Source of the DNA: Bacteroidota bacterium | GTDB lineage: Bacteria > Bacteroidota > Ignavibacteria > Kapaibacteriales > NICIL-2 | Direction: 5' to 3' | Length of the DNA: 64,000 nucleotides | Assembly: GCA_019695345.1 (NCBI GenBank) | Contig: JAIBAE010000004.1 | Span: 39,765-103,764 of the forward strand | Shown: positions 16,125-61,329 of the stretch, piece by piece | How the letters are laid out: each line of letters starts with the position of its first letter | How positions within the stretch are numbered: the first letter of the stretch is position 1 | Translations under genes and position numbers: made by a program | Notes under the pieces: generated by a model | Databases searched by the model: none | Told to the model about the DNA's origin: nothing | Seen by the model: only the letters and a program-made list of their open reading frames with translations

Positions 16125-16170
16125 TATTTTTCTTGCCGGAAGCTCCAAACCACAAACAATAAAGGCGTGT

Positions 16171-37800: not shown

Positions 37801-40800
37801 GTAGGAACTACTATTGGTGGTGGGCAAAATAATCAAGCAAGTAATAGTTATTCGGTTGTAGCGGGAGGTTTAACAGATACAGCGTCCGGTGATTACTCTG
37901 TTGTTAGTGGTGGAACTGCGAATGTTGCGAGTGGCACGAGTGCTGTAGTATCCGGTGGTGAATTAAACAAGGCAACAGGCAATCAAACTACAATTTTAGG
38001 TGGATTTGGTTTACGATTAGGAGGCACTGGTTCATTTGGTTTTAATGGTTTTAACACCGTTGCTGATTCTGCCTTTGTTTCGAATGATAGAACGGCATAT
38101 TTTGGCAACGTAGATTTGTGGTTGGGTAATACAGATAATACAACAAGTGAATTACGTTTCTTTGAAGCACAATCAACAGATGGAATCTTCCCTGCGGCCG
38201 GAACTAACTACACTGCATTTAAAGCAGGTACACAAACAGCAGATGTTACTTACACTCTTCCCACAGCGTATCCAACTGTTAGCGGGCAAGTTTTAAGCAG
38301 TACTACAGTTGGTGTTATGAGTTGGGTAACGGCAAGTAGTGGGTTAACGCATTTTACAGAATCAGTTAATACTTCAGCACCTAATGTAACAGTACCTGTA
38401 GTACGCTTGCTTGCAACAAATGCAGCTACCAATGTTGATGTGGCACTAAGCCCCAAAGGTAGCGGTGCACTAACAGGTAATGTAGCAGATAATACTCTAA
38501 GTGGTGGCAACAAACGTGGCACCTATGCTGTAGATTGGCAACTAAATCGATCTGCTGCTAACCAAGTAGCAAGTGGAAACTGGTCAGTTCTATCTGGTGG
38601 AGCTGGAAATGTTTCAAGTGGATTGTATTCAACTGTAGGTGGAGGATGGTTTAATCAGGCAACCAATCAACATGCAGTTGTAGGTGGTGGAGAAGGCAAC
38701 TCTGCAACTGCTGCCGCTTCTTCTGTTTTAGGTGGCTCTGGTAATATTGCAAGTGGGCAATATTCAGCTGCTGTTAGTGGATGGGTAAACACAGCAAGTG
38801 GAGGTTATTCCAATATTACTGGGGGTGATCATAATACAACCAGTGGAAGTTATTCCAATATTAATGGCGGCGGTTATAATACAGCAGGTGCTAACTATAC
38901 GGTAATTGGAGGTGGCTATCTAAATATAGTTGCGGCTGATTATACATCAATTGCTGGCGGTTATGCTCTTCGAATGGGAGGGGTCGGATCTTTTGGATTT
39001 AATGGATTCAATGCTCTAACTGACTCAGCTTACATAACTGCAAATAGAACGGCATATCTTGGTAATGTTGATTTATGGCTTGGAAATACTGACAACACTA
39101 CAAGTGAGCTTAGATTTTATGAAGCTCAGTCAACTGACGGAACTTTTCCAGCTGCTGGTACAAACTACACTGCATTCAAAGCAGGTACACAAACAGCAGA
39201 TGTTACTTACACTCTACCAACCGCAGCACCTGCAAGTAACGGTCAAGTGTTAAGTAGTACAACAACAGGAACAATGAGTTGGGTTACCGCCGGTGGCGGG
39301 GACGTGACCGGACCGGCATCCTCCGTTGATAACGCCTTAGCACGATATGATGGTACAACTGGTAAAATAATCCAGAACAGCGGTTTGATTCTTGACGATT
39401 ATTCTACAGCTACACAGGCAAACGTTACACTTCGCGCCGATAGCGGTTCGGTAGCAAACATTTCGATGGTATTATCACCGAAAGGAACTGGAGCTTTACT
39501 TGCTAACAAGCCAAATGGTGCTGTTACAGGCGGTAATGCAAGAGGCATCAATGCTGTTGACTTACAAACGAGTAGAACAGCATCTACTCAAGTAGCTTCT
39601 GGTGATTACACTGTTATATTAGGGGGTAGTGATAACACTGCCACTGGAACAGCATCCTCTATTCTAGGAGGGTATGATAACACGGCAAGTGGTAGCTTCT
39701 CTGTAATATCAGGTGGTTTTTCAAATTCAAATACAACTATTAGTTCTTATTCTGTTATCGGTGGCGGGCTTCATAATTCTGTGAGTGATGGTGGATCAAC
39801 GGTAGGTGGTGGGGTAGATAATTCGGCCTTAGCACAGGGGAGTGCTATAGCTGGTGGTGGAAGAAATTATACTAACCAAAATTATGGAAGTATTAGTGGC
39901 GGTTTTGAGGATACTATAAACACTTCTGCCACCTACGCTACAATTTCAGGTGGACAAAGAAATAAGATTACTGCATCTTTAGGATCAATTGGGGGTGGTA
40001 AGGCTAATACCGTTAGTGGTGATTATTCTACCATAGCAGGTGGTTATTCGTTACGCCAGACAGGCATTGGTTCATTTGGGTTTAATGGTTATAACACAAT
40101 TGCCGATTCTGCTTATGTATCAGCAAATAGAACTGCTTACTTTGGCAACGTAGATTTGTGGTTGGGTAACACAGATAATACAACAAGTGAACTACGTTTC
40201 TTTGAAGCACAATCAACCGACGGAACCTTCCCAGCCGCAGGTACAAACTACACTGGGTTTAAAGCTGGCACACAAACAGCAGATATAACATACACGTTGC
40301 CAGTCGCAGCACCTGCAAGTAACGGTCAGGTATTAAGTAGCACAACAGGTGGTGTTATGAGTTGGGTAACAGCTGGAAGTGGTGATGTAACCGGACCTTC
40401 CGCCTCTGTAAATAACGCTATTGCACGATTTGATGGTACAACAGGTAAAATTATCCAAAATAGTGGAATAGTTATAGATGACACAGTTACAGTAAGTGCT
40501 AAAAAAATAGTAACCCTTAGAGCTGAAGATAATACTACAGCAAATATTACTTTATCGTTGTTACCAAAAGGTACCGGTGCACTAACCGCCAGCAAACCAG
40601 ACGGTACAGCATTTGGCGGGAATATCAGAGGTGATTATGCAGTAGATTTACAGACATCAAGAGGTACCGGTACACAAGTAGCAAGTGGCAACTACTCTGT
40701 TATAAGTGGCGGAAAATTTAATACTGCATCTGGATTGAATTCTACCATTGCAGGTGGTTCGAGTTGTGTTGCAAGTGGCAACTATTCATTTGTAAGTAGT

Positions 40801-42132
40801 GGATTAAATAATGTTGCCAATGGGCTTTACTCAGCTATTGGTGGGGGTAGTGATAATTATGTTACACAACAAGGTAGTTCCATTTCCGGTGGCAGTAGGA
40901 ATTATGTTAATCAAGACTTTTCAACAATTGGTGGTGGTATTGATGATACCATCAATACTGCTGCAATATATTCCACTATTGCTGGCGGACAAGCCAACAA
41001 GATAACTGCAAATCGTTCTGCTATTGGTGGTGGTTATGGAAATTATATCAGTGGGGCGAGTGGTACAATTGCCGGGGGCTATCTGGACACAGTTTCCGGT
41101 ACTTTTGCAGTTGTTGCTGGTGGTTATAAAAATAATGTTAGTGGAAGCTATTCAACTATTAGCAGTGGTTATGTTAATTATGTCAGCAGTCAATACTCTG
41201 CAATTTTAGGAGGTGCTAATAATGATGTTACTGCAAACTATTCTTCAGTTCTTGGTGGGCAAGCAAATACAGCAAATGGCCAATACAATTTGGTATTTGG
41301 AAATGCAGTTGTACCAACGGTAACAGAAAACTACCGTGTATATTTCTTCGAACCTACAAGCTACGGGTTCTTGGGAATTAACCGTGAAGATTTAGACTAC
41401 CCTATTCATGTTGGGACGAGTGCTTCCAATGGTAATGGCGCGTATCTGACGACTGGTGGAGTGTGGACAAACGGTTCATCACGAACATTCAAAGACCGTT
41501 ATACAAGTTTGGATAGTGCCGAAGTACTTAAGAAAGTTCGCAATCTTGATGTTCGTGGGTGGTGGTACAAAGGAACACAAGAGTATCATGTCGGACCTTT
41601 TGCCGAGGATTTTCGTGATGCCTTTGGAACAGGTGTTCTGGACAACACTGATAGTAGAAAATACTTAGCCGCCACAGACATTGCAGGTGTTGCGTTGTAC
41701 TCATCGCAACAACTTATCAAACAAAACGAACAACTCTTTTCTGAAAACGAGCGCATGAAATCCGAAAACGAATCTATTAAACTTCGTTTGGAACGTTTGG
41801 AAAGTATTATTTCTAACAAACCCGTTTCTACCGAAACTGTTACACCTGTTCAGCAAACAAAAACAAATGCTCCGCGAATTGTTAGCATTGCGCCGGACCC
41901 GGCAGGAAACTACGCAGTAGTAAAATTCGAGTTGCCAAAAGCTGCTAATGTTGAACTGTTTGTTTCGGCAGGTAATGGAACTCGTACGCTTGATATTATG
42001 AGTGGCGTGTTTATGCAAGCAGGTACCTACGATGTAGAAGTAAATCTTAACGATGTAGCAAACGGTTGGTATGTATGCGAACTTCGTGCATCGGCTGAAT
42101 CTGCACAACGGTTGTTCAGAGTAGTTAAATAA
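28813..42132 (+). CDS. Giant (about 4440 aa) secreted tail-fibre-like adhesin. It has a signal peptide, an N-terminal domain, eight 80/126-aa repeats, seven repeats of about 330 aa, a C-terminal intramolecular-chaperone (peptidase S74-like) domain and a T9SS CTD.
   Basis: The ORF is 28702..42132. The likely start is Met at 28813 (MSFSRFTLFLFLLCSSVVFAQ). DNA repeats of 240 bp (period example 32281 to 32521) encode ...AINITAGAIGVTDGSITTAKLA... Repeats of about 1 kb begin at approximately 34380, 35340, 36230, 37310, 38340, 39300 and 40380 (GDVTTLGTVTDNQLTRYHNTSGDTIQ...YFGNVDLWLGNT...). The C-terminal GNGAYLTTGGVWTNGSSRTFKDRY...HVGPFAEDFRDAFG...DIAGVALYSSQQLIKQNEQL matches the phage tail-fibre chaperone domain. 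The final 85 aa (IVSIAPDPAGNYAVVKFELPK...LFRVVK) match the T9SS CTD. Confidence 0.85.
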   Translation: MSFSRFTLFLFLLCSSVVFAQIPRTVNYQGVLLDAQNQPVTDSTYLVKFSLFTSSANGTELWSEDKLVTTSGGVFDVILGTRAPLSLSFDAPYWLEIQVENRAPFTPRIGLTSVPYALRADTTTVALEVSSNAKVVRSINAISGNVRLKAGSGVQITELGDTITISTTAVGSANPIIRSPQGTLVVSGKDTIDIDVADGGILTKHLADKSITTVKIAQNGATNGQVLKWNGTTWVAADDNGSSYSAGSGITINAGVVTNTGDTDPNDDITNTSTAGGDLTGTYPNPTVKAGAITTPKIADAAVTGAKLEDIITSGTFGNASTVPQITVDTKGRITGVQNVPISATNLTTAGGDLDGTYPNPTLAQKGATNGQVLKWNGTSWQPDNDNGQVYNAGRGISINGALILNTGDADSTNDVTITSTAGGDVSGVFNNLKVEKIQNVNVSSTTPTNGQLLQFNATTNSWEPVTINTGSSGVAGGDLAGTYPNPTIAQKGASNGQVLGWNGSAWIPVTPQTSGNAGGDLTGTYPNPTLAQKGATNNQVLKWNGTSWQPANDDGQTYTAGTGINITAGVVTNTGDTDASNDITNSTTAAGDLTGTYPAPTIAQKGATSGQVLKWNGTAWTPSTDNGDVYTAGDAINITAGAIGVTDGSITTAKLANNAVTTAKITDANVTTPKLADGSVTSTKLNQMSATSGQVLKWNGTSWQPANDDGQTYTAGTGINITSGVVTNTGDTDASNDITNSTTAAGDLTGTYPAPTIAQKGATNGQVLGWNGSAWIPVTPQTSGSAGGDLTGTYPNPTLAQKGATNGQVLKWNGTAWTPSTDNGDVYTAGDAINITAGAIGVTDGSITTAKLANNAVTTAKITDANVTTPKLADGSVTSAKLNQMSATSGQSLVWNGTAWTPTTVSASGTAGGDLSGTYPNPNVVKLQTRDVSSTAPTSGQVLKWNGTAWTPSTDNGDVYTAGDAINITAGAIGVTDGSITTAKLATNAVTTAKITDANVTTPKLADGSVTSAKLNQMSATSGQSLVWNGTAWTPTTVTTSGTAGGDLSGTYPNPNVVKLQTRDVSSTAPTSGQVLKWNGTAWTPSTDNGDVYTAGDAINITAGAIGVTDGSITTAKLATNAVTTVKINDANVTTPKLADGSVTSAKLNQMSATSGQVLKWNGTAWTPSTDNGDVYTAGDAINITAGAIGVTDGSITTAKLATNAVTTVKITDANVTTPKLADGSVTSAKLNQMSATSGQVLKWNGTAWIPSTDNGDVYTAGDAINITAGAIGVTDGSITTAKLANNAVTTAKITDANITTPKLADGSVTSTKLNQMSATTGQSLVWNGTAWTPTTVSASGTAGGDLSGTYPNPNVVKLQTRDVSSTAPTSGQVLKWNGTAWTPSTDNGDVYTAGDAINITAGAIGVTDGSITTAKLATNAVTTAKITDANVTTPKLADGSVTSAKLNQMSATNGQTLVWNGTAWTPTTVSASGTAGGDLSGTYPNPNVVKLQNRNVAATAPTNGQVLKWNNTTSVWEPGADNNTTYTAGAGISIAGNVISNSGDTDASNDITNTTTAGGDLSGTYPNPNVVKLQTRDVSSTAPTTGQALVWNGTAWAPSAVSVSGSAGGDLTGTYPNPSVAVNAITTAKILDGNVTTSKLSDGSVTSAKLNQMSATSGQSLVWNGTAWTPTTVTTSGTAGGDLSGTYPNPNVVKLQTRDVSSTAPTSGQSLVWNGTAWTPTTVSASGTAGGDLSGTYPNPNVVKLQNRNVASTSPTNGQVLKWNNTTSVWEPSADNNNTYTAGAGISIAGNVITNTGDTDASNDITNTTTAGGDLSGTYPNPNVVKLQTRDVSSTAPTTGQVLKWNGTAWTPSTDAGGSGDVTTLGTVIDNQLTRYHNTSGDTIQSSAIVIDDYTTTTQNNVAIKADDGATADITLVLAPKGNGALSADKPNGVAAGGNARGIAAVDFQMERSAATHVASGDYSTIGGGYANTASGNYSTVAGGYQNSATAFRSSVTGGYLNVAGNTNSVVAGGHTNNSSGAQSAILGGSDNVITSTANNSSIVGGSTNTLEGSYSTILGGVGLRFTGSYNFGFNGLTTTADSAYINSSRVGYFGNVDLWLGNTNGSASSLKFFEAQASDGTFPAAGTNYTAFKAGTQTTDVTYTLPTAAPASNGQVLSSTTAGTMSWVTPSTGTGDVTTLGTVTDNQLTRYHNTSGDTIQSSAIVIDDYTTTTQNNVAIKADDGATADISLVLAPKGNGALTADKPDGTTAGGNARGTNAVDFQMVRVAGNQVASGDNSFIGAGSRNKATGGNTAVVSGYQNTANQGAILTGQDNTVSGAASAIAGGYGNTVGSSGSWSAILAGYQNTVNAATSSIVGGNKLTLGGVGSLGFNGKDSAVVGAQYTAYFGNVDVWLGNTDTVARSLRFYEAQTSSGNFPAAGTNYTAFKAGTQATDVTYTLPTAAPTSNGQVLSSTTGGTMSWVTPSTGTGDVITLGTVTDNQLTRYHNATGDTVQGSAIVIDDYTTTTQNNVAIKADDGSTANISLVMAPKGTGALIASKPDGTATGGNARGANAVDLQTVRANAAYVASGNYSVIAGGAENRATALYSTVGGGYNHIASDTGATIAGGNQNWAQANYATVGGGSGNRATADYGTVAGGNSNDASGQYSFAGGGKSNNASGQYGVALGGLTNQADGVYSTVINGTDNIASGDISTILGGTKNITAGNYTIVGGHGLNFGSNADNSFGYHGYNVLSDSVYINTSNIAYFGNVDMWLGNTRNTASQLKFFEPQSTDGTFPAAGTNYTAFKAGTQTTDVTYTLPTAAPASNGQVLSSTTTGTMSWVTPSTGTGDVVTLGTVTDNQLTRYHNTSGDTIQSSAIVIDDYTTTTQNNVAIKADNGAALDISLVLVPKGNGALISSKPDGTATGGNARGMYAVDLQLNRAAASQVANGAYATVLGGRRNTANGQYSIVSGGDGNTIGAGGLVATVSGGSSNTATNTWSTIGGGNTNTATGVGTTIGGGQNNQASNSYSVVAGGLTDTASGDYSVVSGGTANVASGTSAVVSGGELNKATGNQTTILGGFGLRLGGTGSFGFNGFNTVADSAFVSNDRTAYFGNVDLWLGNTDNTTSELRFFEAQSTDGIFPAAGTNYTAFKAGTQTADVTYTLPTAYPTVSGQVLSSTTVGVMSWVTASSGLTHFTESVNTSAPNVTVPVVRLLATNAATNVDVALSPKGSGALTGNVADNTLSGGNKRGTYAVDWQLNRSAANQVASGNWSVLSGGAGNVSSGLYSTVGGGWFNQATNQHAVVGGGEGNSATAAASSVLGGSGNIASGQYSAAVSGWVNTASGGYSNITGGDHNTTSGSYSNINGGGYNTAGANYTVIGGGYLNIVAADYTSIAGGYALRMGGVGSFGFNGFNALTDSAYITANRTAYLGNVDLWLGNTDNTTSELRFYEAQSTDGTFPAAGTNYTAFKAGTQTADVTYTLPTAAPASNGQVLSSTTTGTMSWVTAGGGDVTGPASSVDNALARYDGTTGKIIQNSGLILDDYSTATQANVTLRADSGSVANISMVLSPKGTGALLANKPNGAVTGGNARGINAVDLQTSRTASTQVASGDYTVILGGSDNTATGTASSILGGYDNTASGSFSVISGGFSNSNTTISSYSVIGGGLHNSVSDGGSTVGGGVDNSALAQGSAIAGGGRNYTNQNYGSISGGFEDTINTSATYATISGGQRNKITASLGSIGGGKANTVSGDYSTIAGGYSLRQTGIGSFGFNGYNTIADSAYVSANRTAYFGNVDLWLGNTDNTTSELRFFEAQSTDGTFPAAGTNYTGFKAGTQTADITYTLPVAAPASNGQVLSSTTGGVMSWVTAGSGDVTGPSASVNNAIARFDGTTGKIIQNSGIVIDDTVTVSAKKIVTLRAEDNTTANITLSLLPKGTGALTASKPDGTAFGGNIRGDYAVDLQTSRGTGTQVASGNYSVISGGKFNTASGLNSTIAGGSSCVASGNYSFVSSGLNNVANGLYSAIGGGSDNYVTQQGSSISGGSRNYVNQDFSTIGGGIDDTINTAAIYSTIAGGQANKITANRSAIGGGYGNYISGASGTIAGGYLDTVSGTFAVVAGGYKNNVSGSYSTISSGYVNYVSSQYSAILGGANNDVTANYSSVLGGQANTANGQYNLVFGNAVVPTVTENYRVYFFEPTSYGFLGINREDLDYPIHVGTSASNGNGAYLTTGGVWTNGSSRTFKDRYTSLDSAEVLKKVRNLDVRGWWYKGTQEYHVGPFAEDFRDAFGTGVLDNTDSRKYLAATDIAGVALYSSQQLIKQNEQLFSENERMKSENESIKLRLERLESIISNKPVSTETVTPVQQTKTNAPRIVSIAPDPAGNYAVVKFELPKAANVELFVSAGNGTRTLDIMSGVFMQAGTYDVEVNLNDVANGWYVCELRASAESAQRLFRVVK

Positions 42133-42195
42133 TATGCTATCGCAAACCGCACCGAGGCGTTGTGCATACTACAACATTTTTCTGCGGGAAAGAAC
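42133..42195 (+). repeat. Intergenic A/B element, forward copy, immediately after the giant gene's stop codon.
   Basis: tatgctatcgcaaaccgcaccgag ... ttctgcgggaaagaacg. The first 21 nt are identical to the copy at 12526. Confidence 0.6.
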
Positions 42196-42370
42196 GTTCA
42201 TCGTATCCTTACGTTTATCGTTTTGTACGGTGTTCGTAACAAACATAAAGCCGGATACTTGATAAACAGTAGTATAAGTAAACATCGCGAAGCTGAAGGA
42301 TGTGTCCCTACCGGGTTGCGGCGCAGGATGGGTTGCTTCGGCAGTTGAGAGAAACAACAAATAAAAAAGA

Positions 42371-43309
42371 ATGATAACGAATGTATCACATACAACTCAC
42401 GTACTGACCGCCATACTGTGCGCTATGCTTAGCTTCTTCCCAATTGCAACATTGGCGCAGTCCCCGGCATCGCAACGCGGTGTTGTAAGTAGCGGCGGTC
42501 AGAGAGTGAGTACAAACAACGGACGAGAGATTCTGAACGGAAGTGTTGGACAGTTTGCTATTGGTAGAATTAGAGAAGCGAATACCAAAAATAATGTTGG
42601 TTTTTGGTACGGTGCTGTTTCGTTGTTTGCTAAACCTAACAGCGAGAGCATTATAGAGCTGCCAAACGTTACTGCGGATATTGGCGTTATGATTGATGTT
42701 CCGTTGATTTTAGTGCAGTCGAAAAATTTACAACGGGTTAAGGCAAAATCGTTTGAGGCAGTTATACGATATAACATCCATGTGCTGGAAAGCAAGCAAT
42801 GGAGCGGTGTTAGAAGCGGTGACTCGATGCGGATAACAGTTAAGGGAACTTTGCAAAGTAATGATACATTACTTTCGATACCGTTTTTAACCAAGTTAGG
42901 CAATGCCGAATACACACCCTTGATTATAGAAAAGTTTACGTGGTTGGAATCGCCAACTACAAACAATATAGTTCGCAACGGAAGAGTTGATTTTACCGGT
43001 ATCTGCCACGAAGGTGATACTACACGATTAGTATTTTCGGCTGCAACAACAGCATTGCTATCGGTGTTTCCAAACCCAGCAAACGAAGAAGCTACAGTAC
43101 GTTTTCAGGTAGGGGAGAAAGGGCAAACGGATATTGCATTGGTTGATATGAATGGGCGTGTAGTAATGGGTGTGTACAGTGGTAAAGTTGAGAGATTAGG
43201 AGAATACACCGAAACGATAAATGTATCCACCATTGCAAGCGGATTATACTACGCTGTGTTGCGTTCCAGAACACGAACACAGGTTCACCAAGTAATAGTC
43301 AGGAAATAA
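42371..43309 (+). CDS. Secreted protein with a T9SS C-terminal sorting domain.
   Basis: Signal peptide ...AMLSFFPIATLAQS. The C-terminus LLSVFPNPANEEATVRFQV...LYYAVLRSRTRTQVHQVIVRK is CTD-like. Its stop overlaps the next gene's start (TAATG). Confidence 0.7.
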   Translation: MITNVSHTTHVLTAILCAMLSFFPIATLAQSPASQRGVVSSGGQRVSTNNGREILNGSVGQFAIGRIREANTKNNVGFWYGAVSLFAKPNSESIIELPNVTADIGVMIDVPLILVQSKNLQRVKAKSFEAVIRYNIHVLESKQWSGVRSGDSMRITVKGTLQSNDTLLSIPFLTKLGNAEYTPLIIEKFTWLESPTTNNIVRNGRVDFTGICHEGDTTRLVFSAATTALLSVFPNPANEEATVRFQVGEKGQTDIALVDMNGRVVMGVYSGKVERLGEYTETINVSTIASGLYYAVLRSRTRTQVHQVIVRK

Positions 43310-45306
43310 TGCGATATATCGTAACATCCATAGTGTTTATACTTTGTTATACACTTGCATTGGCGCAGGATACGATTCCACGGTTGCTGTATCACGTGTC
43401 GGGAGGTTTGCGATATGGTCTGACGTCGTATTCAACTACTCTTCATTCATTACCGGGAGTTCCTTCGTGTTGTCCGGGTTATGAGAGTGGTAGCGGCTCG
43501 GGGCTTTCCTATCAGGCACAGTATTTACAACCGGTAGCAATGGAAGACGATGTTTGTGTAGGAGTTGATGCCGGAGTTGAAAACATGAGCGGCACGTTAA
43601 CAACAACTGAAACTGAAACACTTGATGACGACGGAGTAACAAAACAAGGCGTGTTTGAGCATAGCATACAAACATCGTTACCAATGTTACGCATAAGTGG
43701 TATGGCACGAGCGCGCGTTTGGAACGATGTACTTATTAACGCAGGAATTGGAATGGGAATTCCGTTAGCACCGACATACCATCAGCAAGAGTTAATAACC
43801 GACCCACAAACATTACTTTTTAGCAATGGTACAAAAATCCGTAACGAACGTTCGGGCAGCTTACCCGAAGCAACCAGCGTGCATACTATACTTAATGTAG
43901 GTGTTGGGTATGCACTACCTGTATCGGCAAATAAACATTGGCAGTTGATTCCGGAGTTGCGGTACACCAAAAGCATGAATGATGTGATTGCAGGTACATA
44001 TTGGTCGGCACAGAGTTTTAGCCTTGGTATTGCATTGCAGTTTAGCATGTACTCAACACCACCGCCACCACCGCCGCCAGTTATTAAGCCAGATACTCCA
44101 AATGTAATAGCATTTGTACCGCCACCGCCGCCACCTATAAAACCTAAAACCGAGTTGATAAAACCATTTGAACTCAAACTAACAAAAGGTGATGGGAAGA
44201 CTATAGATACCATTGTGGTTACAAATATTGTTGCAACTACAATGTTTTCTCTGATGCACTATGTATTTTTTGACAGTCTCTCAACGGAAATACCAAAACG
44301 TTATGAACTCTTAACCCCAGAACAAGTTAATAGTTTCTCAATATCAATGCTGGAAGGAAAAGGAACGTTTGGTGTGTATTATAACATGCTAAACATGATT
44401 GGATATAGGATGAGAAATACTAAATCAAAGATTACGTTGATTGGCTGTAACTCCAATACAGACACCGAAAAAAATAATCTTGAACTTTCAAAAGGTAGGG
44501 CTGAATCAGTTAAAAAGTATCTGACTGATGTGTGGGGTATTGCACCTGAACGAATACAAATTTCTGCGCGTAACCTACCGGAAACACCATCAAATCCTGT
44601 TTCGCAATATGGTATTGAAGAAAACCGTAGGGTAGAGATTCAATTCGAAGAACTATCGCTGTTTACTCCAACTGCCTTTCAGGATACAACAAGAACATTG
44701 AATAATCTTAACTTTGGCTTTACAGCCGGTGTTGAATGTGAAGCAGGTGTTGATACATGGGAGTTCTCAATTCTGCAAGGAAAGAAATCCATTGTTAGTG
44801 TAAATGGCAAAGATTCAATGCCCACATTGTTACAACAACAGTGGGATGAAAGAAAAATTGTTATTCCCGAAGCTGGAATACCAATAAATGGTAGATTAGT
44901 TATTAACGACAAAAATGGTAACCAAACTGTGTTTGAAACTAAACCTTTAGTTGTACAATCTCAGATAGAACAAAAGTTTATTCTAAAAAAATTCTCACTC
45001 ATTGTATTTAAGTTTAAAGAAAGTGCAGTTTCACCATTAAACTTACTAATATTAGATATGATACGCTCTCAGATTGAAAGTAACTCGATTGTTAATGTAA
45101 TCGGACACACAGATATATACGGGAATCCTGCATATAATCAAAAACTTTCCGAGCAGCGTGCTTTACAAATATCCAAACTTTTAAAACTTCCTAATTCTGC
45201 GGCAAGTGGAGTAGGAGGTTCCGACCCAATTCACGATAATACGTTGCCGGAAGGACGCTTCTACTCACGAACAGTTCAGATAAATATCGAGACTCCTAAA
45301 AAGTAA
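43309..45306 (+). CDS. OmpA-family outer-membrane protein with two OmpA-like peptidoglycan-binding domains and a poly-proline linker.
   Basis: OmpA-like segments NSNTDTEKNNLELSKGRAESVKKYLTD...EENRRVEIQ and IGHTDIYGNPAYNQKLSEQRALQISKLL. Poly-proline runs PPPPPPPVIKP and PPPPPPIKP. N-terminal signal peptide. Translationally coupled to the upstream gene. Confidence 0.75.
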   Translation: MRYIVTSIVFILCYTLALAQDTIPRLLYHVSGGLRYGLTSYSTTLHSLPGVPSCCPGYESGSGSGLSYQAQYLQPVAMEDDVCVGVDAGVENMSGTLTTTETETLDDDGVTKQGVFEHSIQTSLPMLRISGMARARVWNDVLINAGIGMGIPLAPTYHQQELITDPQTLLFSNGTKIRNERSGSLPEATSVHTILNVGVGYALPVSANKHWQLIPELRYTKSMNDVIAGTYWSAQSFSLGIALQFSMYSTPPPPPPPVIKPDTPNVIAFVPPPPPPIKPKTELIKPFELKLTKGDGKTIDTIVVTNIVATTMFSLMHYVFFDSLSTEIPKRYELLTPEQVNSFSISMLEGKGTFGVYYNMLNMIGYRMRNTKSKITLIGCNSNTDTEKNNLELSKGRAESVKKYLTDVWGIAPERIQISARNLPETPSNPVSQYGIEENRRVEIQFEELSLFTPTAFQDTTRTLNNLNFGFTAGVECEAGVDTWEFSILQGKKSIVSVNGKDSMPTLLQQQWDERKIVIPEAGIPINGRLVINDKNGNQTVFETKPLVVQSQIEQKFILKKFSLIVFKFKESAVSPLNLLILDMIRSQIESNSIVNVIGHTDIYGNPAYNQKLSEQRALQISKLLKLPNSAASGVGGSDPIHDNTLPEGRFYSRTVQINIETPKK

Positions 45307-45445
45307 TTTTTGCTAACGCAAGCCGTACCACATCTTGTGCTTTTAAAGGCCATACCACGCGGGACAGAATCTTAGCAAAGGAAACTTCCCGCACAATGTC
45401 GTGCTTTGTTATAGTGTCATTTGATGCGGTCTGGCGATAGCAAAA
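45305..45445. repeat. Head-to-head pair of A/B elements forming an imperfect palindrome of about 140 bp (MITE-like) between convergent genes.
   Basis: tttgctaacgcaagccgtacc ... cgcgggacag ... cttcccgcac ... gatgcggtctggcgatagcaaaaaaaa. Confidence 0.6.
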
Positions 45446-45450
45446 AAAAA

Positions 45451-47364
45451 CTATTGATTACTACGAAGTTTATTAAGTGCTTCCTGCGCGCGGGTGTTTT
45501 TAGCATCAACGCGTAAGGCACGGTTAAATAGAGTATCAGCTTCTGCTTTTCTGTTGTTACTCATAAACCACATACCAAGAGTGGTTATCTCGCCCGAGCA
45601 AGTTTCTGCAATAGTTTTTTCTAAATGTGGGTCGGTATATTTTTTAGCAGTAGCAGCGAACATATCCACTTGAATTTTTTGTACATCGCTGAAAGTAGGC
45701 GTGGAGTCGTTTGAGATGGCAAGCATTAAACCGAACGGTGTTTTTGTTTGAGTAGCGGCAAAGCCATCCTCTCCCTGAAACACTTCAGGCGAAGCAATGA
45801 TAGGATGTGTAGCAATGTTGTTATTTACTATGGAGTTTAACATAGCGATAAAACGTTGTTGAATAACGGGGTACTCACTTTGCGGTAGTTCGTTGCGCTC
45901 AAATTGATTGAGGTATTCCATGTAGGCATCAATTTCTTTTTTGCATGGCTTGATTACTTCCGGATACCAACGTTCAAGTTGCGGTAAGTACCACGTGCGG
46001 CGCAATAGTTCCTTATCAATTATTACAATGTCCGGACGGTAACCCTCAATTTGTTGTTTATACCAAAACGCGGAAACGTAATAATCCCATTGTTGTGAAA
46101 ATACTATTGAATTTTTGGGTAGAGATTCTGTCATGAGTTTTGTGTATTCGGGTACAAGTACGTTCTCTTTTTCGTTATTCTCTTTGTAATTAATACCAAT
46201 GGTTACTAATGGAATAAGAAAGACAGGATACAACGTACCGGGAACCAGTTGTGTTAATTCATACACACCAATACTCATCATTACGATAAAGGCAATGAAT
46301 GATAGCAGGAAGTATGAATCAATATCGTGAATGTTGTAGTTAATGGAGTAACCAACACAAAACACAACCAGCAATGTAAAGAACACTCCAAGCTGCATAG
46401 AGCGTGCATACAGTTTTACCAATCCCCATACAGTAAATACTAAACCAATAAACCCAAGCTGATACGGAACAAGCGATAAAAACTTCTCGAATTGTTTGCC
46501 ACGTGTACCTTTAACAAACATCCACACCTGATATTGTTTGCCAAGTACATGGTAGGTAAACTCATCCCAACCACGGTGTACTGCACCCCAGTTAAATAAT
46601 GGTTCCGATGAACTGCGGATAAGCATCGCAACATATATAGCGGCACACGATACAATTACACCAAACAGTATACTAAATTCTACTAAACGTGGTTTACTTA
46701 GCGATAATGTTTCATCTGTCCGCCAGAAGAACATTAACAGTATAGCTGGTAATACAAGAATAGTGGTTAAGTGATTGCCAAAGCTCAACCCAAGCATTAA
46801 AGCCGATAATAATAGCCATCGGTTATGCTTTTCCAAAATGCCACGTAAAAACGTGTACAGCACAAGAGTAATCATAAGCAAGTGTAGCGAATACACTTCT
46901 ATGCTTGTAGCTTGCGCCCACACTGTGCGAGCACCCATGTAGGTTAAGGCACTAATAGAAGAGATAATGGAAACATTTAACGATGGTGCATCAGTTGTTA
47001 GTACGGGCATCTGTGGCACAGACTTTTGTTTACCTTGTTGCTTAACTAGTGGTTTCTGTGTTTTGTAAAATTGTAACACTACCGAGCTAATCAAATACAC
47101 CACACTTACCGATAGTGCCGTACAAAAGGCAGCAAACAAATTCATCTTATATATAACACTAAAAGGTAAGGGCAGTAAACTCCACAAGTGACCTACCATA
47201 ATAAACAGTGGATACCCTGTTGGATGCGCAACTCCGTACGATGAACATGCACCGGCAAGTTCACCTGCATCGGTAAAAGTGACATCGGGTGCAAGTGTTG
47301 TAACGTATAAAACAAATGCAACGCAAAACAGTACAACGGGTAATATCAATCCACGGTTTTTCAT
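45451..47364 (-). CDS. Polytopic membrane protein, DUF2723 or PMT/ArnT-like glycosyltransferase-fold, with a C-terminal TPR.
   Basis: The ORF extends to 47406. The likely start is MKNRGLILPVVLFCVAFVLYVTTLAPDVTFTDAGE. There are many transmembrane helices. The C-terminus EADTLFNRALRVDAKNTRAQEALNKL is TPR-like. Confidence 0.55.
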   Translation of the reverse strand: MKNRGLILPVVLFCVAFVLYVTTLAPDVTFTDAGELAGACSSYGVAHPTGYPLFIMVGHLWSLLPLPFSVIYKMNLFAAFCTALSVSVVYLISSVVLQFYKTQKPLVKQQGKQKSVPQMPVLTTDAPSLNVSIISSISALTYMGARTVWAQATSIEVYSLHLLMITLVLYTFLRGILEKHNRWLLLSALMLGLSFGNHLTTILVLPAILLMFFWRTDETLSLSKPRLVEFSILFGVIVSCAAIYVAMLIRSSSEPLFNWGAVHRGWDEFTYHVLGKQYQVWMFVKGTRGKQFEKFLSLVPYQLGFIGLVFTVWGLVKLYARSMQLGVFFTLLVVFCVGYSINYNIHDIDSYFLLSFIAFIVMMSIGVYELTQLVPGTLYPVFLIPLVTIGINYKENNEKENVLVPEYTKLMTESLPKNSIVFSQQWDYYVSAFWYKQQIEGYRPDIVIIDKELLRRTWYLPQLERWYPEVIKPCKKEIDAYMEYLNQFERNELPQSEYPVIQQRFIAMLNSIVNNNIATHPIIASPEVFQGEDGFAATQTKTPFGLMLAISNDSTPTFSDVQKIQVDMFAATAKKYTDPHLEKTIAETCSGEITTLGMWFMSNNRKAEADTLFNRALRVDAKNTRAQEALNKLRSNQ

Positions 47365-47435
47365 ATTATCACAAAGTAGTAGGGTAAAACAAAAAAGGGA
47401 TGACAAGTGCCATCCCTTATTCTACAGGAAGACTT

Positions 47436-47663
47436 TTAGTTGTTATCGCCGCCGAACATTCCACCTAGCATGTTCGATGCCTGACCCATAATATCTCCAC
47501 CACCTTCGCCACCCGCATTACCACCAATAACATTATCTACCATGCCTTGCATACCTTCCGGAAGTTTATCTTTAATAAAACTTAAAACCGCGTTAACAGC
47601 CGATTGTGCTTGTTCATGTGATAATCCTGTTTTTTCAACAACAAAGTTGATTAGCATATCCAT
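47436..47663 (-). CDS. Small hypothetical protein with a Gly-rich C-terminus.
   Basis: The likely start is MDMLINFVVEKTGLSHEQAQSAVNAVLSFIKDKLPEGM...GGNAGGEGGGDIMGQ. The upstream part of the listed ORF overlaps an A/B element. Confidence 0.45.
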   Translation of the reverse strand: MDMLINFVVEKTGLSHEQAQSAVNAVLSFIKDKLPEGMQGMVDNVIGGNAGGEGGGDIMGQASNMLGGMFGGDNN

Positions 47664-47739
47664 TTCGTTACTCCAATAAATGTAAGGTAAATTTGTGGCG
47701 CGAAAATACAGTATGCTATACTTTTTGCAATACGGTAGT

Positions 47740-47880
47740 TTTTTGCTGTCGCCTGACCGCACCAAATCACACTTCTACAAACGCCCTTATATTGCGGGAA
47801 AGGAACACAGACTTACTTCTCTCCCGCATAGTAAGGATTATTGACTGATAACGTTCGGTGCGGTCTGGCGATAGCAAAAG
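47740..47880. repeat. Head-to-head pair of A/B elements forming a palindrome of about 140 bp.
   Basis: ttttttgctgtcgcctgaccgcacc ... attgcgggaaaggaac ... ttctctcccgca ... ggtgcggtctggcgatagcaaaag. Confidence 0.65.
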
Positions 47881-47886
47881 TTATTA

Positions 47887-48231
47887 TTATAATTGCCCAA
47901 GATGTGTATGCTTAAAGTTATCGGTGTATTTAAGTCCATAGCCCAATAGTCTATCTAAAGCCGAATGTCCTACCATTATAACTCCAGCCAACAACAGCAC
48001 CTGATGTGATAGTACAAAACCTATTAACGCAATGCCAAAGGCAATACCTTTGTGGTGTGTAAGGTTGTACGTGAACGCACCAATGCGTGTGTTAACAAGG
48101 TAGCCAATCATTCCAACATCGGGCAACAGAATACACGCTGGATACACCCACCAAGCAAATGGTAAATAGGTAAAAAGAATTATAGAAGCTATAAACTGAA
48201 CGGCTTCTTCAAGTTTTAGTAAGAGGTTCAT
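47887..48231 (-). CDS. Small integral membrane protein (DUF4260-like).
   Basis: 114 aa with three or four hydrophobic helices. Confidence 0.45.
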   Translation of the reverse strand: MNLLLKLEEAVQFIASIILFTYLPFAWWVYPACILLPDVGMIGYLVNTRIGAFTYNLTHHKGIAFGIALIGFVLSHQVLLLAGVIMVGHSALDRLLGYGLKYTDNFKHTHLGQL

Positions 48232-48233
48232 GG

Positions 48234-49538
48234 TTAGTTGAGTTGAAGTTTGCCCGCAATTAAACGTAGTTGAAGTTCGGCAGACTTTGCGGTGTACTGC
48301 GCGTTGAGTAAACGTGTGGCAGACTCAATAGTTGCATATTGAATCTGGCGCAATTCTACCGAAGTGATGGTTTGTCGTTTAAAACGCTCCAACGCAATCT
48401 GTGCATTCTCTTTTGCAAGGAGTATGTTCTGTGCTTCCAACTGCATTAGCTTTAGTGCATTGTTGTAATCGTTTTCGGCATTGGTTAATGATTGTTGTAC
48501 TTTACGTTTAATGTTATCAATCTGTAGTTGTTTGCTTTGGAGTTGTATATCCGTTACATCCAATTGTGTTTGTGTTAGTAAACCATTAAATAACGGAATG
48601 CTAATACCAACTCCTACATTTAAACCATTGGTTTGGTTTAGTAACGAGAACCCGGCGCTGTTGCTGTTTCGGTTATAGTTATATCCACCATTTATAGAAA
48701 CCGATGGTAATCCCTGCGAGGCAATTTCTCTGCGGGTTTGCAAGGCAATGGCTACATCTTGTTTGGCAAGAAGCGTAGAGTAGTTTTGCTCGGTAGCTGT
48801 GGAAGTAATACTGTTCAAATCCAAGTTCAAATCTACCATAATACTATCCTCAACATCAAGTCGCTGTGTTGGAATTCTACCAATCAGTGTATTAAGCGAT
48901 ACTTCCAATTGTGCAATGGCATTTCCTACATTATACAACGCAGAGTGTTGTTCATTCAAATCCATTTGCGCTTGCAAAAGGTCGTTCTTTGCTGCAACGC
49001 CAACATTAAACCGTGTTTGTGCAATTCGTTTACGTTCTTCTAAAACTGTAATCAGTTCCTGTGTTGCTTTTAATTGCTGGTGCAGACGTACTAACCCATA
49101 GTAGGCAAGCGATATATCAAAAATTGTTTGGCTAATACGTTGTTGTAATGAGATGTTGCTTGAGCGTTCTAACTCTTCCAACTTGCTTTTTGTGGCAAAC
49201 ATTTTCATGCCATCAAACACCTTCCAGTTTATGGTGGCAAAAGCTTGCATGGAGCTTTGTGTAACGCCACTGGTTGATACTTCGTTTCCATTAGAAAACT
49301 TCTGCTCAATACTCACTGCCGAAGTATTTCCGGTAATTCCGGCAACTGCTGTTGGGTACGCGCCCGATGTAGCCCACGAATTATTTACTTTACTTATATC
49401 CGCGTCGTTACGGGCAATTTGAACATCGTAATTATTCTTCAACCCACGCCGTATAGCATCTTCCAACGTTAGTTTATCCTGAGCGTATATAGTTGCAGTG
49501 ATTACCAGTAACAGAAAAAAGTAAATAAGTGGTTTCAT
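48234..49538 (-). CDS. TolC-like outer-membrane efflux protein (OEP family).
   Basis: Signal peptide MKPLIYFFLLLVITATIYAQ. Begins LTLEDAIRRGLKNNYDVQIA... The characteristic duplicated coiled-coil/beta architecture of about 435 aa is present. Confidence 0.75.
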   Translation of the reverse strand: MKPLIYFFLLLVITATIYAQDKLTLEDAIRRGLKNNYDVQIARNDADISKVNNSWATSGAYPTAVAGITGNTSAVSIEQKFSNGNEVSTSGVTQSSMQAFATINWKVFDGMKMFATKSKLEELERSSNISLQQRISQTIFDISLAYYGLVRLHQQLKATQELITVLEERKRIAQTRFNVGVAAKNDLLQAQMDLNEQHSALYNVGNAIAQLEVSLNTLIGRIPTQRLDVEDSIMVDLNLDLNSITSTATEQNYSTLLAKQDVAIALQTRREIASQGLPSVSINGGYNYNRNSNSAGFSLLNQTNGLNVGVGISIPLFNGLLTQTQLDVTDIQLQSKQLQIDNIKRKVQQSLTNAENDYNNALKLMQLEAQNILLAKENAQIALERFKRQTITSVELRQIQYATIESATRLLNAQYTAKSAELQLRLIAGKLQLN

Positions 49539-49560
49539 TGAATATACATGTATATAAAGT

Positions 49561-49626
49561 TTATGCTTTCGCCTGACCGCGCCAAATATACGCATAAGGA
49601 ATAACCCTTATTGTGCGGGAAAGGTG
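49561..49626 (+). repeat. Intergenic A/B element, forward copy.
   Basis: tgctttcgcctgaccgcgcc ... ttgtgcgggaaagg. Confidence 0.6.
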
Positions 49627-49746
49627 ATTCGGTAAAGAAACTACTGTTCACCGTGTAGTTGTAGAGTAAAATCAATGCTGTGCATACAGAAAAAGTTGTA
49701 GTTTAGAATCAGATATTATTTTCTCAATACTCTGACACACAACATC

Positions 49747-50265
49747 ATGAAATATCCACGTACATTATCGTCCGGTGCTAATAATACGGTGATTGTTCTT
49801 AGTGATAGTGAGGTTGGAAAGTTGTTTACCGGCGATACTCGTTCCGAAATTGGAAGTGAGGCGGAGAAAATGCAGTTCGCTAATTCCATTAACTCGTTGG
49901 TTGTTGAATTTAAGCGTCTTGAGTTTAATGAAGACCTTAACGCTGAGATGTTAGTGATGGAACGAATATATCCTTTTGACTTCCGCTCGTATGAGGTAGA
50001 AATGCGTGAGTTATGGCTTTCGGTATTTGAAGATGAACTACGTGCATTACATGCGGCCGGATTTGTTCACAGAGATTTGAAACGCCCATCGAGTATTAGT
50101 GGTTTATCGTTTGATAATATACTGCTTACCAATTCAGGGTTACGATTGATAGACGTTGGCATATCAGCACTTCGCAGACAAATAGGGGATGTGATTTTTG
50201 AAAAATATGTTGAAGTTGAATTACAGGAAATTCAAGACTTTAGAGATTACTTTTTGAACAGGTAG
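49747..50265 (+). CDS. Small atypical protein-kinase-like-fold protein.
   Basis: The catalytic-loop-like sequence FVHRDLKRP...DNILL and the DFG-like LIDVGIS are present. The hinge-like LVMERIYP is present. 172 aa, low GC. Confidence 0.45.
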   Translation: MKYPRTLSSGANNTVIVLSDSEVGKLFTGDTRSEIGSEAEKMQFANSINSLVVEFKRLEFNEDLNAEMLVMERIYPFDFRSYEVEMRELWLSVFEDELRALHAAGFVHRDLKRPSSISGLSFDNILLTNSGLRLIDVGISALRRQIGDVIFEKYVEVELQEIQDFRDYFLNR

Positions 50266-50321
50266 TTGTAACTCTTTTTCAGTTCATGGTTCTGTGGTAC
50301 CGATTACTAATACAATAAACT

Positions 50322-51308
50322 ATGAAAAAGCTAACTAAAAGAAAACCAATAGGATTCTTACCATTTAGCATAACTGCTTATTGTATTGCAGTGCTCTTAC
50401 CGATACTTGCAGTATTACATGTATTAAACCAAGCTGATTTTGTTGACCCTGCTAAAACAATTAGAAAATCTAATACCTATGCAGTACAGGCTCAATATGA
50501 TAAAGAAGATTCACGTTTTATGTGGCCTTTAAAGAGAGAGTATGCATATCACATTTCCAATAGCTATCCAGATATTTCAATATGGGAATATAAAATTGAG
50601 AATGAAGCACAAGATTTAAGAATAAAAACGAATACTATTATATTAGGAAGTAACAGGTTCACCAAACTTATATATTCAGACCATCCAAAACATAGCCAGA
50701 GCAAACTACAAAGTCATGCAATGTTGATTACTGTTTATTACAACAATACTGGTATTCACGTTTGTACCATGGATACGTTGATGCAGACATATCTACCTTC
50801 CATGCAATCACAAATGTTATATGATGTTGCAAGGTTTGTTAAACAACACAGAGCATTGTATCCAGATATATTTAGTGAAATTGTTCTATTGTATAAAGTT
50901 GCACCGGAGGTATTGTTTGGTGATGCAATGAGTTTATATGATGGCTTGTTACCGTTAGGTAACATACAAGGAGTCAAAATTCTACATTCTAATTATCTTG
51001 GAGATGTAAATACTATTATTAGAAAGATAAAGTATTATAATACAATAAAAGTAGATTCGCACTTTGATCCATATCCTAAGCCCATAAATTGTGGTTTAAT
51101 TGGGTGTTGTTGTGTTAGATTACCTGAACCTTCAAATGCAATGCTGTTATCAATGAAGTTAACTGATACACTTACTATTTTTTTGTTATCCTATTTTCTA
51201 TTACTCGTGGTGGTGGTATATCTATCCGGAAGTTTGTATTTCTTTAGAGGTAAACGAAGAACAGTTCTTCTTCATCGCCTTTCTCTCCCGCAAATTGAGG
51301 TTGTATAG
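50322..51308 (+). CDS. Hypothetical bitopic membrane protein.
   Basis: An N-terminal signal-anchor (ITAYCIAVLLPILAVLHVL) and a C-terminal transmembrane segment (LTIFLLSYFLLLVVVVYL). The CGLIGCCCV Cys cluster is notable. The final residues are encoded by an A/B element. Confidence 0.45.
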   Translation: MKKLTKRKPIGFLPFSITAYCIAVLLPILAVLHVLNQADFVDPAKTIRKSNTYAVQAQYDKEDSRFMWPLKREYAYHISNSYPDISIWEYKIENEAQDLRIKTNTIILGSNRFTKLIYSDHPKHSQSKLQSHAMLITVYYNNTGIHVCTMDTLMQTYLPSMQSQMLYDVARFVKQHRALYPDIFSEIVLLYKVAPEVLFGDAMSLYDGLLPLGNIQGVKILHSNYLGDVNTIIRKIKYYNTIKVDSHFDPYPKPINCGLIGCCCVRLPEPSNAMLLSMKLTDTLTIFLLSYFLLLVVVVYLSGSLYFFRGKRRTVLLHRLSLPQIEVV

Positions 51309-51343
51309 TGGTTGCCATTGGGCGCGGTCGGGCGATAGCAAAT
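51279..51343 (-). repeat. A/B element, reverse copy, overlapping the 3' end of the upstream CDS.
   Basis: ttctctcccgcaaa ... ggcgcggtcgggcgatagcaaa. Confidence 0.55.
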
Positions 51344-54559: not shown

Positions 54560-54600
54560 AAATATAAAGCCGTGGTAATTATACTACGGCTTTTTTTATT
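54560..54600 (+). terminator. Rho-independent terminator.
   Basis: aaagccgtggtaattatactacggcttttttta. Confidence 0.65.
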
Positions 54601-54826
54601 GGTGAATCCCGCCTCTGCCGAAGCGAGCAATACTGCGCCGCAACTCGGTCGGGTAAAAACGTTGCAGCACCGCAGGGAATTCCCTCTGTCCTTCGGACAT
54701 CTCCCTTTACCAAAGGGAGAAAAGATATCTTTGTATAATTTAGAGTTAAACAATTGTCCCCTTTAGTAAAGGGGGCGGATTCTCGCGCAGTGAGAATCGG
54801 GGGAATCCACAGTAACAGCATGTATT

Positions 54827-56511: not shown

Positions 56512-56567
56512 ACAGATTTTTTATGCCCTCTTGGCATATGCTAAGGGGGCTTTTTTTGTTTAAACCT

Positions 56568-56909: not shown

Positions 56910-56975
56910 CTGCTATCGCCAGACCGCACCAAACCTTGCATTACAGTCCATCCACACTTTTGCGGGAAGAAACGT
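56910..56975 (+). repeat. Intergenic A/B element, forward copy, between convergent genes.
   Basis: ctgctatcgccagaccgcaccaaa ... ttttgcgggaagaaacg. Confidence 0.6.
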
Positions 56976-58819: not shown

Positions 58820-58920
58820 AGTTAGATGTATGTCAATTCTATAATGCGATGCTGAACGATTGGCTCCGCCTGTGTGCCGGAGCAGTTCGGTTGCTGCGGC
58901 AGAAGCGGGTTACCCAATAT

Positions 58921-61263: not shown

Positions 61264-61329
61264 ACTTAACCTTACATTTTTACTACCGACAATATACGGT
61301 ATTACCATTCAATCATTTGTTAAAGGTTT

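Follow-up and report, generated by a model that had tools for sequence, protein, structure and literature searches.

A two-box interspersed repeat family at gene boundaries of a Kapaibacteriales genome, probably REP/BIME-like and copied as a single module

Introduction

A 64,000-nt stretch of a Kapaibacteriales genome (Bacteroidota; GenBank assembly GCA_019695345.1, contig JAIBAE010000004.1, forward-strand positions 39,765 to 103,764; hereafter, the window) contains many copies of a short module, the A/B element, in which two unlike conserved boxes, A and B, are separated by a spacer of nearly fixed length. We interpret the A/B elements as a new, lineage-specific repeat family resembling the repetitive extragenic palindromes (REPs) and bacterial interspersed mosaic elements (BIMEs) of enterobacteria, in which the single module is the unit and the head-to-head pairs that it forms are not a unit of their own. 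We put the probability of this interpretation at roughly 0.6. It is favored because the elements are small, extragenic and numerous, occur as singles and as inverted doublets, lack terminal inverted repeats and target-site duplications, and are retained for long periods. What is known of REP, BIME, BOX and Correia elements comes largely from a small number of cultured Proteobacteria and Firmicutes, and both the spread of such interspersed repeats and their use by the host are still debated.

Results

A search of the window with the A box, TTTGCTATCGCCnGACCGCA, gave 11 matches with at most three mismatches, as compared to none in 100 shuffled sequences. A covariance model, R1, built from 37 copies, identifies 20 copies in the window at E ≤ 5e-7, with the next match at E = 2.8; 14 of the 20 are singles and six are paired. 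Additional copies come from 16 kb of the same genome to the left of the window (L071), short metagenome contigs of relatives (L055–L070), a strain with a 97% identical OmpA (L074), a relative with an 85% identical proline-tRNA ligase (ProRS; L075), and two parts (L077 and L080) of a 51.6-kb IMG/VR contig, IMGVR_UViG_3300033075_001822.

Read from A to B, a copy has a T run followed by the A box (22 nt; TTTGCTATCGCCnGACCGCACC), then the spacer, then the B box (12 nt; TGCGGGArAGAA), with a total length of 60–77 nt. Spacer length is nearly constant: among 38 copies, it is 28 nt in 10, 29 nt in 20, 30 nt in seven, and 46 nt in one, the last carrying an inserted 17-nt perfect hairpin. Spacer sequence is free beyond a weak consensus and is G-poor (13% G, 27% C). 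CCGCA of the A box is positioned to pair with TGCGG of the B box, as a GC helix of 4–5 bp closing a loop of about 49 nt. Over 52 copies, the helix cells are paired in 96% of cases, as compared to 26–59% when the partner is slid by 1–3 columns. The second pair (26–98) is CG in 44 copies, GC in eight, and broken in none, and this covariation is evidence that one strand forms a short helix; 10 of the 52 copies have a break in the fifth pair. A short-A-box subfamily (GCTAnCGCAAnCCGCACC) includes the copies at 12526, 42133, and 45308, and three copies (45308, 25880, and 28555) are decaying. Three further arrangements occur in single copies: pairing of CUAUC of the A box with GAnAG of the B-box tail, a tandem G.A or kink-turn motif, and pseudoknotting of the spacer with the 3′ flank. 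By eye, covariation in the alignment supports none of them, and the short-A-box subfamily lacks the GA.

The unit that is copied is seen on the IMG/VR contig, which carries three copies with spacers 84–87% identical to one another: L077 8833–8907 (−), L080 3469–3544 (−), and L077 4629–4704 (+). These are the only recent copies found, and all three are singles with no partner nearby. Their similarity extends from T(A/C)TGC to TGCGGGAnAG, their flanks are unrelated, no target-site duplication is present at any of them, and the unit copied has no inverted termini, inverted ends being present in pairs only. Three recent single copies with unrelated flanks therefore indicate that a module of about 60 nt is copied; for the copies examined, the single module, and not the pair, is the copied unit. 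The singles in the window are complete, each having an A box, a 28–30 nt spacer, a B box, and its own covarying A–B helix.

Pairs are present in the window at three places, with the A-B-B′-A′ order that an earlier note on this DNA had described. In all three, the A boxes are outermost, a T run precedes each A box, and an A run follows each A′ box. The first pair, spanning 137 bp, comprises 45308–45372 (+; 46.4 bits, E 5.5e-13), a degenerate copy with a short A box (GCTAACGCAAGCCGTACC) that begins 2 nt past the stop codon of an OmpA-family gene (43309–45306), and 45383–45444 (−; 62.8 bits), a copy with a canonical A box located 7 nt past the stop codon of a TMEM260-like gene (45451–47406, −). 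The second pair, also spanning 137 bp, comprises 47742–47803 (+; 68.6 bits), having its A side toward the start of a small minus-strand gene (47436–47663), and 47818–47878 (−; 68.8 bits), located 9 nt past the stop codon of a DUF4260 gene (47887–48231, −). The third pair, spanning 211 bp, has as its left half 7966–8031 (+; 52.5 bits), a copy of the CGGCA/TGCCG helix type, and as its right half 8115–8176 (−; 59.3 bits), which adjoins the intrinsic terminator (hairpin 8179–8207) of the ProRS gene. A third, degenerate copy suggested by eye inside 7966–8176 gives no match to the covariance model at E ≤ 10. Tight pairs recur outside the window, at L071 17699/17872 (174 bp, same genome) and, in relatives, at L069 459/633 (175 bp) and L070 320/539 (220 bp). 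All are convergent, and pair spans vary (137, 137, 174, 175, 211, and 220 bp).

The long hairpin expected of such pairs is found in the 47739–47881 segment, which folds with −63.3 kcal/mol (z = −9.1; none of 200 shuffles equally good). The hairpin of the 45305–45447 segment is weaker (−41.6 kcal/mol, z = −2.6) because its plus-strand copy is degenerate. Shuffled sequences fold as well as single copies do (z from −0.9 to +1.3). Only the boxes are common to both halves of a pair; spacers and B–B′ linkers are unrelated (ACACAGACTTAC versus TCTTAGCAAAGG), and pair interiors are unconserved. No consistent direct repeat flanks the three window pairs, the L071 pair, or the recent singles, only the T and A runs of the element itself. 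In about 190 kb of related loci, A-box ends have no transposase between or next to them, and no parent insertion sequence (IS) was found there.

The earlier note had likened the pairs to miniature inverted-repeat transposable elements (MITEs) or BIME clusters, with single copies as half-elements. In a MITE model, units of about 140 bp with A boxes as terminal inverted repeats would be mobilized by a DDE transposase encoded elsewhere, singles being half-elements produced by deletion or the ends of longer units with cargo. This model fits the 22–24 bp inverted termini and strong hairpin of the pairs, the shared 137-bp span of two of them, and the alternation of orientation along the chromosome. 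It also fits the small, accessory-looking genes enclosed by some plus/minus neighbors (9775–10570, 49562–51342, and L071 12014–12639), the presence in L069 of the counterpart of L071 12014–12639 as an empty pair where L071 has a 131-aa open reading frame (ORF) between the two copies, and the location on the B side, in three comparisons, of DNA that varies between relatives. However, no pair has a target-site duplication, interiors are unconserved both between pairs and between pair halves, there are 14 singles to six paired copies, every single having its B end intact, same-strand neighbors are present, and no parent element was found. The recent copies, moreover, are singles whose similarity ends at the B box, which largely refutes the MITE model and, for the copies examined, leaves no place for singles as half-elements. 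We consider that model very improbable. The comparison with BIME clusters of alternately oriented repeats, drawn in the same note, agrees with the observed architecture and orientation.

The A/B elements are placed with a definite polarity relative to genes. About 27 intergenic gaps measure at least 40 nt, and 17 of them (about 60%) hold a copy. In 12 of 24 copies the A box is no more than 10 nt from an ORF boundary, versus 3 of 24 for the B side, and the median gap to the ORF is 12 nt for the A side as compared to 47.5 nt for the B side (Mann-Whitney p = 0.04; not significant in a paired test, p = 0.13). Two classes of placement are seen: copies in sense orientation directly past a stop codon (e.g., 12526, 13645, 42133, 45308, 45444, 47878, and 56909), and copies on the opposite strand upstream of a start codon (e.g., 10570, 24191, 25880, 49562, 21203, and 9775). 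Because the A box points toward the gene end, two copies in one gap face each other and neighbors alternate in strand, as they do in 18 of 23 cases (p = 0.005). Same-strand neighbors also occur (13645/15092, 24191/25880, and 28555/42133/45308), and four singles are antisense between co-directional genes. Canonical intrinsic terminators are present in the window at 8179–8207, 16162–16186, 47395–47418, 54566–54593, and 56525–56550; an element lies beside one of these, with a sense copy, at the ProRS gene end only, and seven other gene ends carry an element without a canonical terminator.

This placement also bears on a different explanation, in which the A/B element is a host cis-element at transcription-unit borders, serving, as DNA or in a read-through transcript, as the site for a lineage-specific factor (i.e., a polar terminator, insulator, or 3′-end element pointing outward), with mobility past or irrelevant. 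Consistent with a cis-element, most intergenic gaps are occupied; 12 copies have the A box 0–9 nt from a stop codon in sense orientation and others lie just upstream of opposite-strand starts; seven gene ends have the element alone, and of those with a canonical terminator only the ProRS gene end has an adjoining sense copy as well; the placement rules hold also on the predicted viral contig of a related host; spacer length stays at 28–30 nt despite free sequence; spacers are G-poor and unstructured on the A-to-B strand; and, at orthologous sites, boxes are 3–7 times better conserved than spacers (see below). Against it, single copies lack a stable fold, and no hairpin in them leads into a U tract; in pairs, the stem has the T run on its 5′ side and the A run on its 3′ side, opposite to the order in an intrinsic terminator; and C barely exceeds G over the whole element, making it a poor Rho-loading site. 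Also against it are the four antisense singles, the decay of some copies, the recent copying of singles, and the sister lineages that lack the family and cope with gaps of 15–33 nt. We regard a cis-element without relevant mobility as possible, though doubtful.

Two other regulatory identities were rejected. As a promoter, the element fails in that TAnnTTTG, the Bacteroidota −7 motif, matches the A-box TTTG in just 2 of 37 copies, neither strand has, by eye, a consistent −33/−7 pair, and sigma-70-like matches are no commoner than in shuffles. As an intrinsic terminator, it has no hairpin followed by a U tract, and the T and A runs of pairs are in the wrong polarity.

Comparison with relatives indicates that installed copies persist. 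Copies are present at orthologous sites in L055, L057, L069, L074, and L075; specifically, the copy at 21203 is shared with L055, the copy at 47878 with L057, and the L071 copies at 12014/12639 with L069. The copy at 8176 is shared with L075, where the stem of the adjoining terminator is altered by compensatory substitutions and the A box still follows. Relative to distant relatives, differences number 4 of 88 positions in A boxes and 5 of 48 in B boxes, as compared to 39 of 115 in spacers (Fisher 4e-8), a divergence of 5–10% for boxes and 34% for spacers. Because the boxes diverge far less than the spacers, they are constrained, or homogenized, in place. At one shared site, L071 12014 and L069 459, the A boxes are identical and 18 of 29 spacer positions differ, as compared to 3 of 29 in the neighboring copy.

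Differences in presence are found as well. The copy at 45383–45444 is missing from L074, which has instead about 540 bp with a 140-aa ORF (L074 4713–5135 versus window 45373–45450); this is a recent replacement, bounded by the B box of 45308–45372 and the stop codon of the TMEM260-like gene. L055 and the window cease to be homologous a few bases past the B box of the copy at 21203, and in these comparisons the DNA that varies between relatives is on the B side. Relatives do differ in the presence of copies, though by replacement of B-side DNA and not as clean 140-bp empty sites.

These breakpoints raise the possibility that the elements are sites of exchange, either as portable homology or as site-specific crossovers (cf. 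pdif modules and neisserial intergenic mosaic elements), or are DNA-uptake signals. The alternating orientation, four homology breakpoints between relatives located 0–7 nt from the outer end of a B box, and the one spacer swapped between otherwise identical boxes would fit exchange. The density, lineage restriction, and conservation of the elements without an obvious function at each site would fit a drive process, and the window contains a TfoX-like gene. However, breakpoints beside a constrained element are expected in any case, no recombinase is associated with the elements, no inversion variants occur in the nine same-species contigs covered (L043–L051), of 13 that carry the gene, and segments between copies include essential genes such as that for ProRS. 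As DNA uptake sequences (DUS/USS), short motifs that biased uptake enriches, the A/B elements would fit in density and lineage restriction, but uptake explains neither the covarying helix nor the gene-ward polarity. We therefore find either form of this explanation scarcely likely.

No copy is present in Kapabacteria loci with an 80–82% identical ProRS or a 55–62% identical OmpA, in which the equivalent gaps are only 15–33 nt. Because these sister loci carry no copy, the family is taken to be restricted to one clade. Among the genome-contig matches listed for the A box alone, there are only chance matches, in high-GC genomes. Rfam gives no match at the gathering score in the whole window and nothing on the elements at E ≤ 10 in 45250–47950. 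In the literature searched, the A-box sequence has only chance matches to primers, and keyword searches returned nothing relevant. To our knowledge, and in line with these Rfam and literature results, no such repeat family has previously been described in this lineage. The family does extend to the IMG/VR contig, which has 12 copies in 25 kb, placed by the same rule as in the window. This contig consists mostly of small ORFs that cannot be annotated, has PHROG matches to an HNH endonuclease, an ATPase, a DNA-binding protein, a radical SAM protein, and phrog_4652 (of unknown function), and has a tandem-repeat block at L077 1793–2626. It is classed as viral and may be a phage, a prophage, or a misclassified island. 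An HNH endonuclease as cargo or mobilizer on this contig was considered and dropped, the two 137-aa ORFs concerned being unrelated.

A guide or spacer-like role for the variable segment was also rejected. Three spacers have no exact match in IMG/VR, 86 kb of the genome contain no spacer match elsewhere beyond one chance 14-mer, and the G-poor composition is not that expected of captured DNA.

A further motif accompanies some copies. GTTYATCGTTT lies 23–25 nt past the GGGA of the B box in about 10 copies and has 19 occurrences in the window, as compared to 3.4 expected (8084, 28644, 28677, 42196, 42213, 51252, and 13 others). It is also present within genes, and an inverted pair (28644/28677) lies upstream of a gene for a 4476-aa protein. 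It could be a third repeat module or a separate regulatory site.

The 14 singles of the window are distributed as follows. The copy with the 17-nt hairpin in its spacer, 9775–9853 (+; 52.1 bits), lies on the strand opposite to the ProRS gene, 81 nt upstream of its start. The gene for a tetratricopeptide repeat (TPR) protein has a copy at each end: 10509–10570 (−; 60.2 bits), with its A side 15 nt from the ATG at 10585, and 12526–12593 (+; 47.8 bits), a member of the short-A-box subfamily (GCTATCGCAAACCGCACC) that abuts the stop codon. The copy at 13584–13645 (−; 50.6 bits) is 4 nt past the stop codon of a minus-strand gene (13649–14998), and that at 15030–15092 (−; 49.6 bits) lies between divergent genes ending at 14998 (−) and starting near 15072 (+). 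Three copies precede genes: 21203–21264 (+; 68.9 bits), 58 nt upstream of the start of an M42 peptidase gene on the opposite strand; 24129–24191 (−; 70.2 bits), with its A side 17 nt from the ATG of a methyltransferase gene at 24208; and 25810–25880 (−; 34.4 bits), 6 nt from an ATG at 25886, whose A box is degenerate in its 5′ half. Upstream of the gene for the 4476-aa protein is a partial copy, 28555–28628 (+; 27.7 bits, model positions 24–75), which has lost the 5′ half of the A box and retains the helix, spacer, and B box; a short-A-box copy, 42133–42200 (+; 51.8 bits), abuts the stop codon of the same gene. In the right part of the window, 49562–49624 (+; 55.7 bits) is 23 nt from the likely start (49538) of an outer-membrane efflux gene on the opposite strand, and 51282–51342 (−; 69.9 bits) overlaps, with its B side, the end of an ORF (50322–51308). 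The copy at 56909–56971 (+; 57.3 bits) begins at the stop codon of the TfoX-like gene and fills the gap up to a convergent gene ending at 56976. Finally, 61332–61392 (+; 62.3 bits) lies upstream of a TonB-dependent receptor gene (likely start 61263), on the opposite strand.

In several places the longest-ORF start overruns an element or a terminator (49538–49595, 61263–61308, and 56523–56580). The genes for the efflux protein and the TonB-dependent receptor most likely start at a downstream ATG preceding a signal peptide, and the TfoX ORF extends over the terminator of the gene before it.

The window has one gene resembling those of REP-associated tyrosine transposases (RAYTs), at 23285–23911 (+). 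Its product has an HIH motif of the HUH type and the sequence YYEHVIR, and matches the NCBIfam model REP_Tyr_transpos at 52.9 bits, below the cut-off of 80. Five classic REPs of the form GTAG(A/C)GACGCGATGCCTCGCGTC, distinct from the A/B elements, surround this gene, at 23151–23173 (−), 23598–23620 (+), 23646–23668 (+), 23936–23958 (−), and 23999–24021 (−); the second and third are inside the reading frame, where they encode a duplicated peptide, RRDAMPRVL. The last 80 bp or so (23200–23279) of the preceding gene (22299–23279), which encodes a type IX secretion system (T9SS) sorting domain, are repeated downstream of the RAYT-like gene (24040–24118). This arrangement suggests that the tail of the T9SS gene was duplicated when the RAYT/REP block inserted; if so, the B side of the element at 24129–24191 would at first have lain directly against the stop codon.

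Other repeats are also present. Two giant repeat proteins are encoded in inverse orientation, at 1–7692 (−), cut by the window start, and at 28702–42132 (+), the 4476-aa protein. Their genes contain arrays of 249- and 399-nt units that are 85–97% identical, with inverted matches of up to 1198 nt at 87–91%. Downstream of each giant gene come a T9SS-tail gene and an OmpA-family gene, the left of these paralogous arrangements being visible in L071. Two GC-rich intergenic stretches, 54600–54680 and 58845–58917, have 77–82% matches in relatives (L068 2806–2870; L064 1087–1159 and L067 576–642) and appear to belong to at least one more repeat family, characterized by short GC hairpins.

Discussion

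Our analysis suggests a REP/BIME-like family whose module is copied singly and then retained. On this interpretation, a copy would be made in trans by an enzyme that reads the two boxes on a single strand of DNA or RNA. Recognition of a folded single strand is suggested by the combination of helix and fixed spacing: the short helix would hold the two boxes at a fixed distance for the enzyme. Copying would then resemble that of REP/RAYT or IS200/IS605-type systems more than that of cut-and-paste MITEs. Once installed, a copy is kept for a long time, its boxes being conserved while its spacer drifts or is replaced. The A-B-B′-A′ palindrome arises when both genes bordering a gap carry a copy, and the resulting hairpins would be by-products, which could act in read-through transcripts as double-stranded structures for processing or stability.

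Several observations weigh against a REP/BIME-like family of this kind. No mobilizing enzyme was found, and the only HUH transposase of the window has other REPs around it. There is no sign of recent copying in 80 kb of the window genome, where non-orthologous spacers have a median identity of 0.55, as compared to 0.52 for shuffled ones; this sample covers only about 2.5% of the genome. Conservation of the boxes is unexpected for purely selfish, immobile copies and points to function in place or to homogenization. The helix rests on one covarying pair, for which the eight GC-type copies may share descent. The strand on which the helix would form is also equivocal: C-to-U or A-to-G changes that keep a G.U pair favor the A-to-B strand, and one G-to-A change in L074, outside those counts, favors the other.

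Among known systems, REPs and BIMEs of enterobacteria and the REPINs of Pseudomonas (mobilized by RAYT, an HUH transposase of the Y1 type) are most similar. They too are short, extragenic, very numerous, and often located right after stop codons, and they too occur as singles and as inverted doublets with long hairpins, with alternating neighbors, no terminal inverted repeats or target-site duplications, and long vertical retention. The anatomy of the unit is unlike that of REPs. A REP unit is an imperfect palindrome of 20–40 nt, whereas the A/B unit is two boxes 28–30 nt apart without a stable fold; A/B copies lack the GTAG or CGTC 5′ tag, having a T run followed by TTTGC in the 37-copy alignment, with GTA upstream of the A box in some copies at variable distance; the halves of an A/B doublet, unlike those of REP doublets, share boxes only; and A/B elements do not surround the RAYT-like gene of the window. 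BIMEs are clusters of units that alternate in orientation and are connected by a few conserved linker motifs; neighboring A/B copies alternate too, but A/B linkers are unconserved and A/B clusters never exceed two clear units.

Other families are less similar. MITEs such as the Correia elements of Neisseria resemble the 137–220 bp A/B pairs in size, in their intergenic location, and in having 22–24 bp inverted termini and a possible long double-stranded RNA hairpin, but A/B pairs have no duplication of TA or other sequence, no conserved interior, and no related IS, and the half is the copied unit. The BOX elements of Streptococcus pneumoniae (boxA-boxB-boxC) are likewise modular, with distinct boxes, intergenic, present in hundreds of copies, and mobilized by unexplained means, and the GTTYATCGTTT motif offers a parallel to their third box; BOX modules, however, are 45–59 nt long, conserved throughout, and stably folded, whereas the middle of the A/B element is a free spacer of fixed length. 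The attC sites of integrons also have conserved ends that pair and a variable center, and recognition as a folded single strand is conceivable for A/B elements by analogy. A/B elements nevertheless have no R″/R′ and L″/L′ boxes (RYYYAAC ... GTTRRRY), pair over only 4–5 bp, and are scattered among housekeeping genes in both orientations with no integrase beside them, whereas attC sites form arrays of one orientation next to an integrase. A possible likeness of the A′ box to the 3′ end of 16S rRNA (helix 45) and to the Haemophilus uptake core GTGCGGT was set aside, both stretches being short.

A more ambitious idea, which we think unlikely, combines spread with host use. Throughout the genome, the two-box module would serve as a polar boundary signal at both ends of most transcription units, its A box facing inward, in the clade and in its phages. 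It would be read by a lineage-specific factor on single-stranded nucleic acid, in place of intrinsic terminators or insulators, and would also spread as a 60-nt unit without inverted repeats or duplications, tolerating any spacer of 28–30 nt.

The family, found in an uncultured Bacteroidota lineage, joins features that are unusual in combination: two unlike boxes, set a fixed distance apart in place of a palindrome, a clear orientation toward gene ends, copies in about 60% of the gaps of at least 40 nt, conservation of boxes at orthologous sites, recent copying of singles, and presence on a predicted viral contig. In these genomes, the elements account for most inverted repeats, as well as for some of the synteny breakpoints and some of the ORF calls that extend too far, and the family provides a clean test between commensal mobile DNA and gene-boundary signals.

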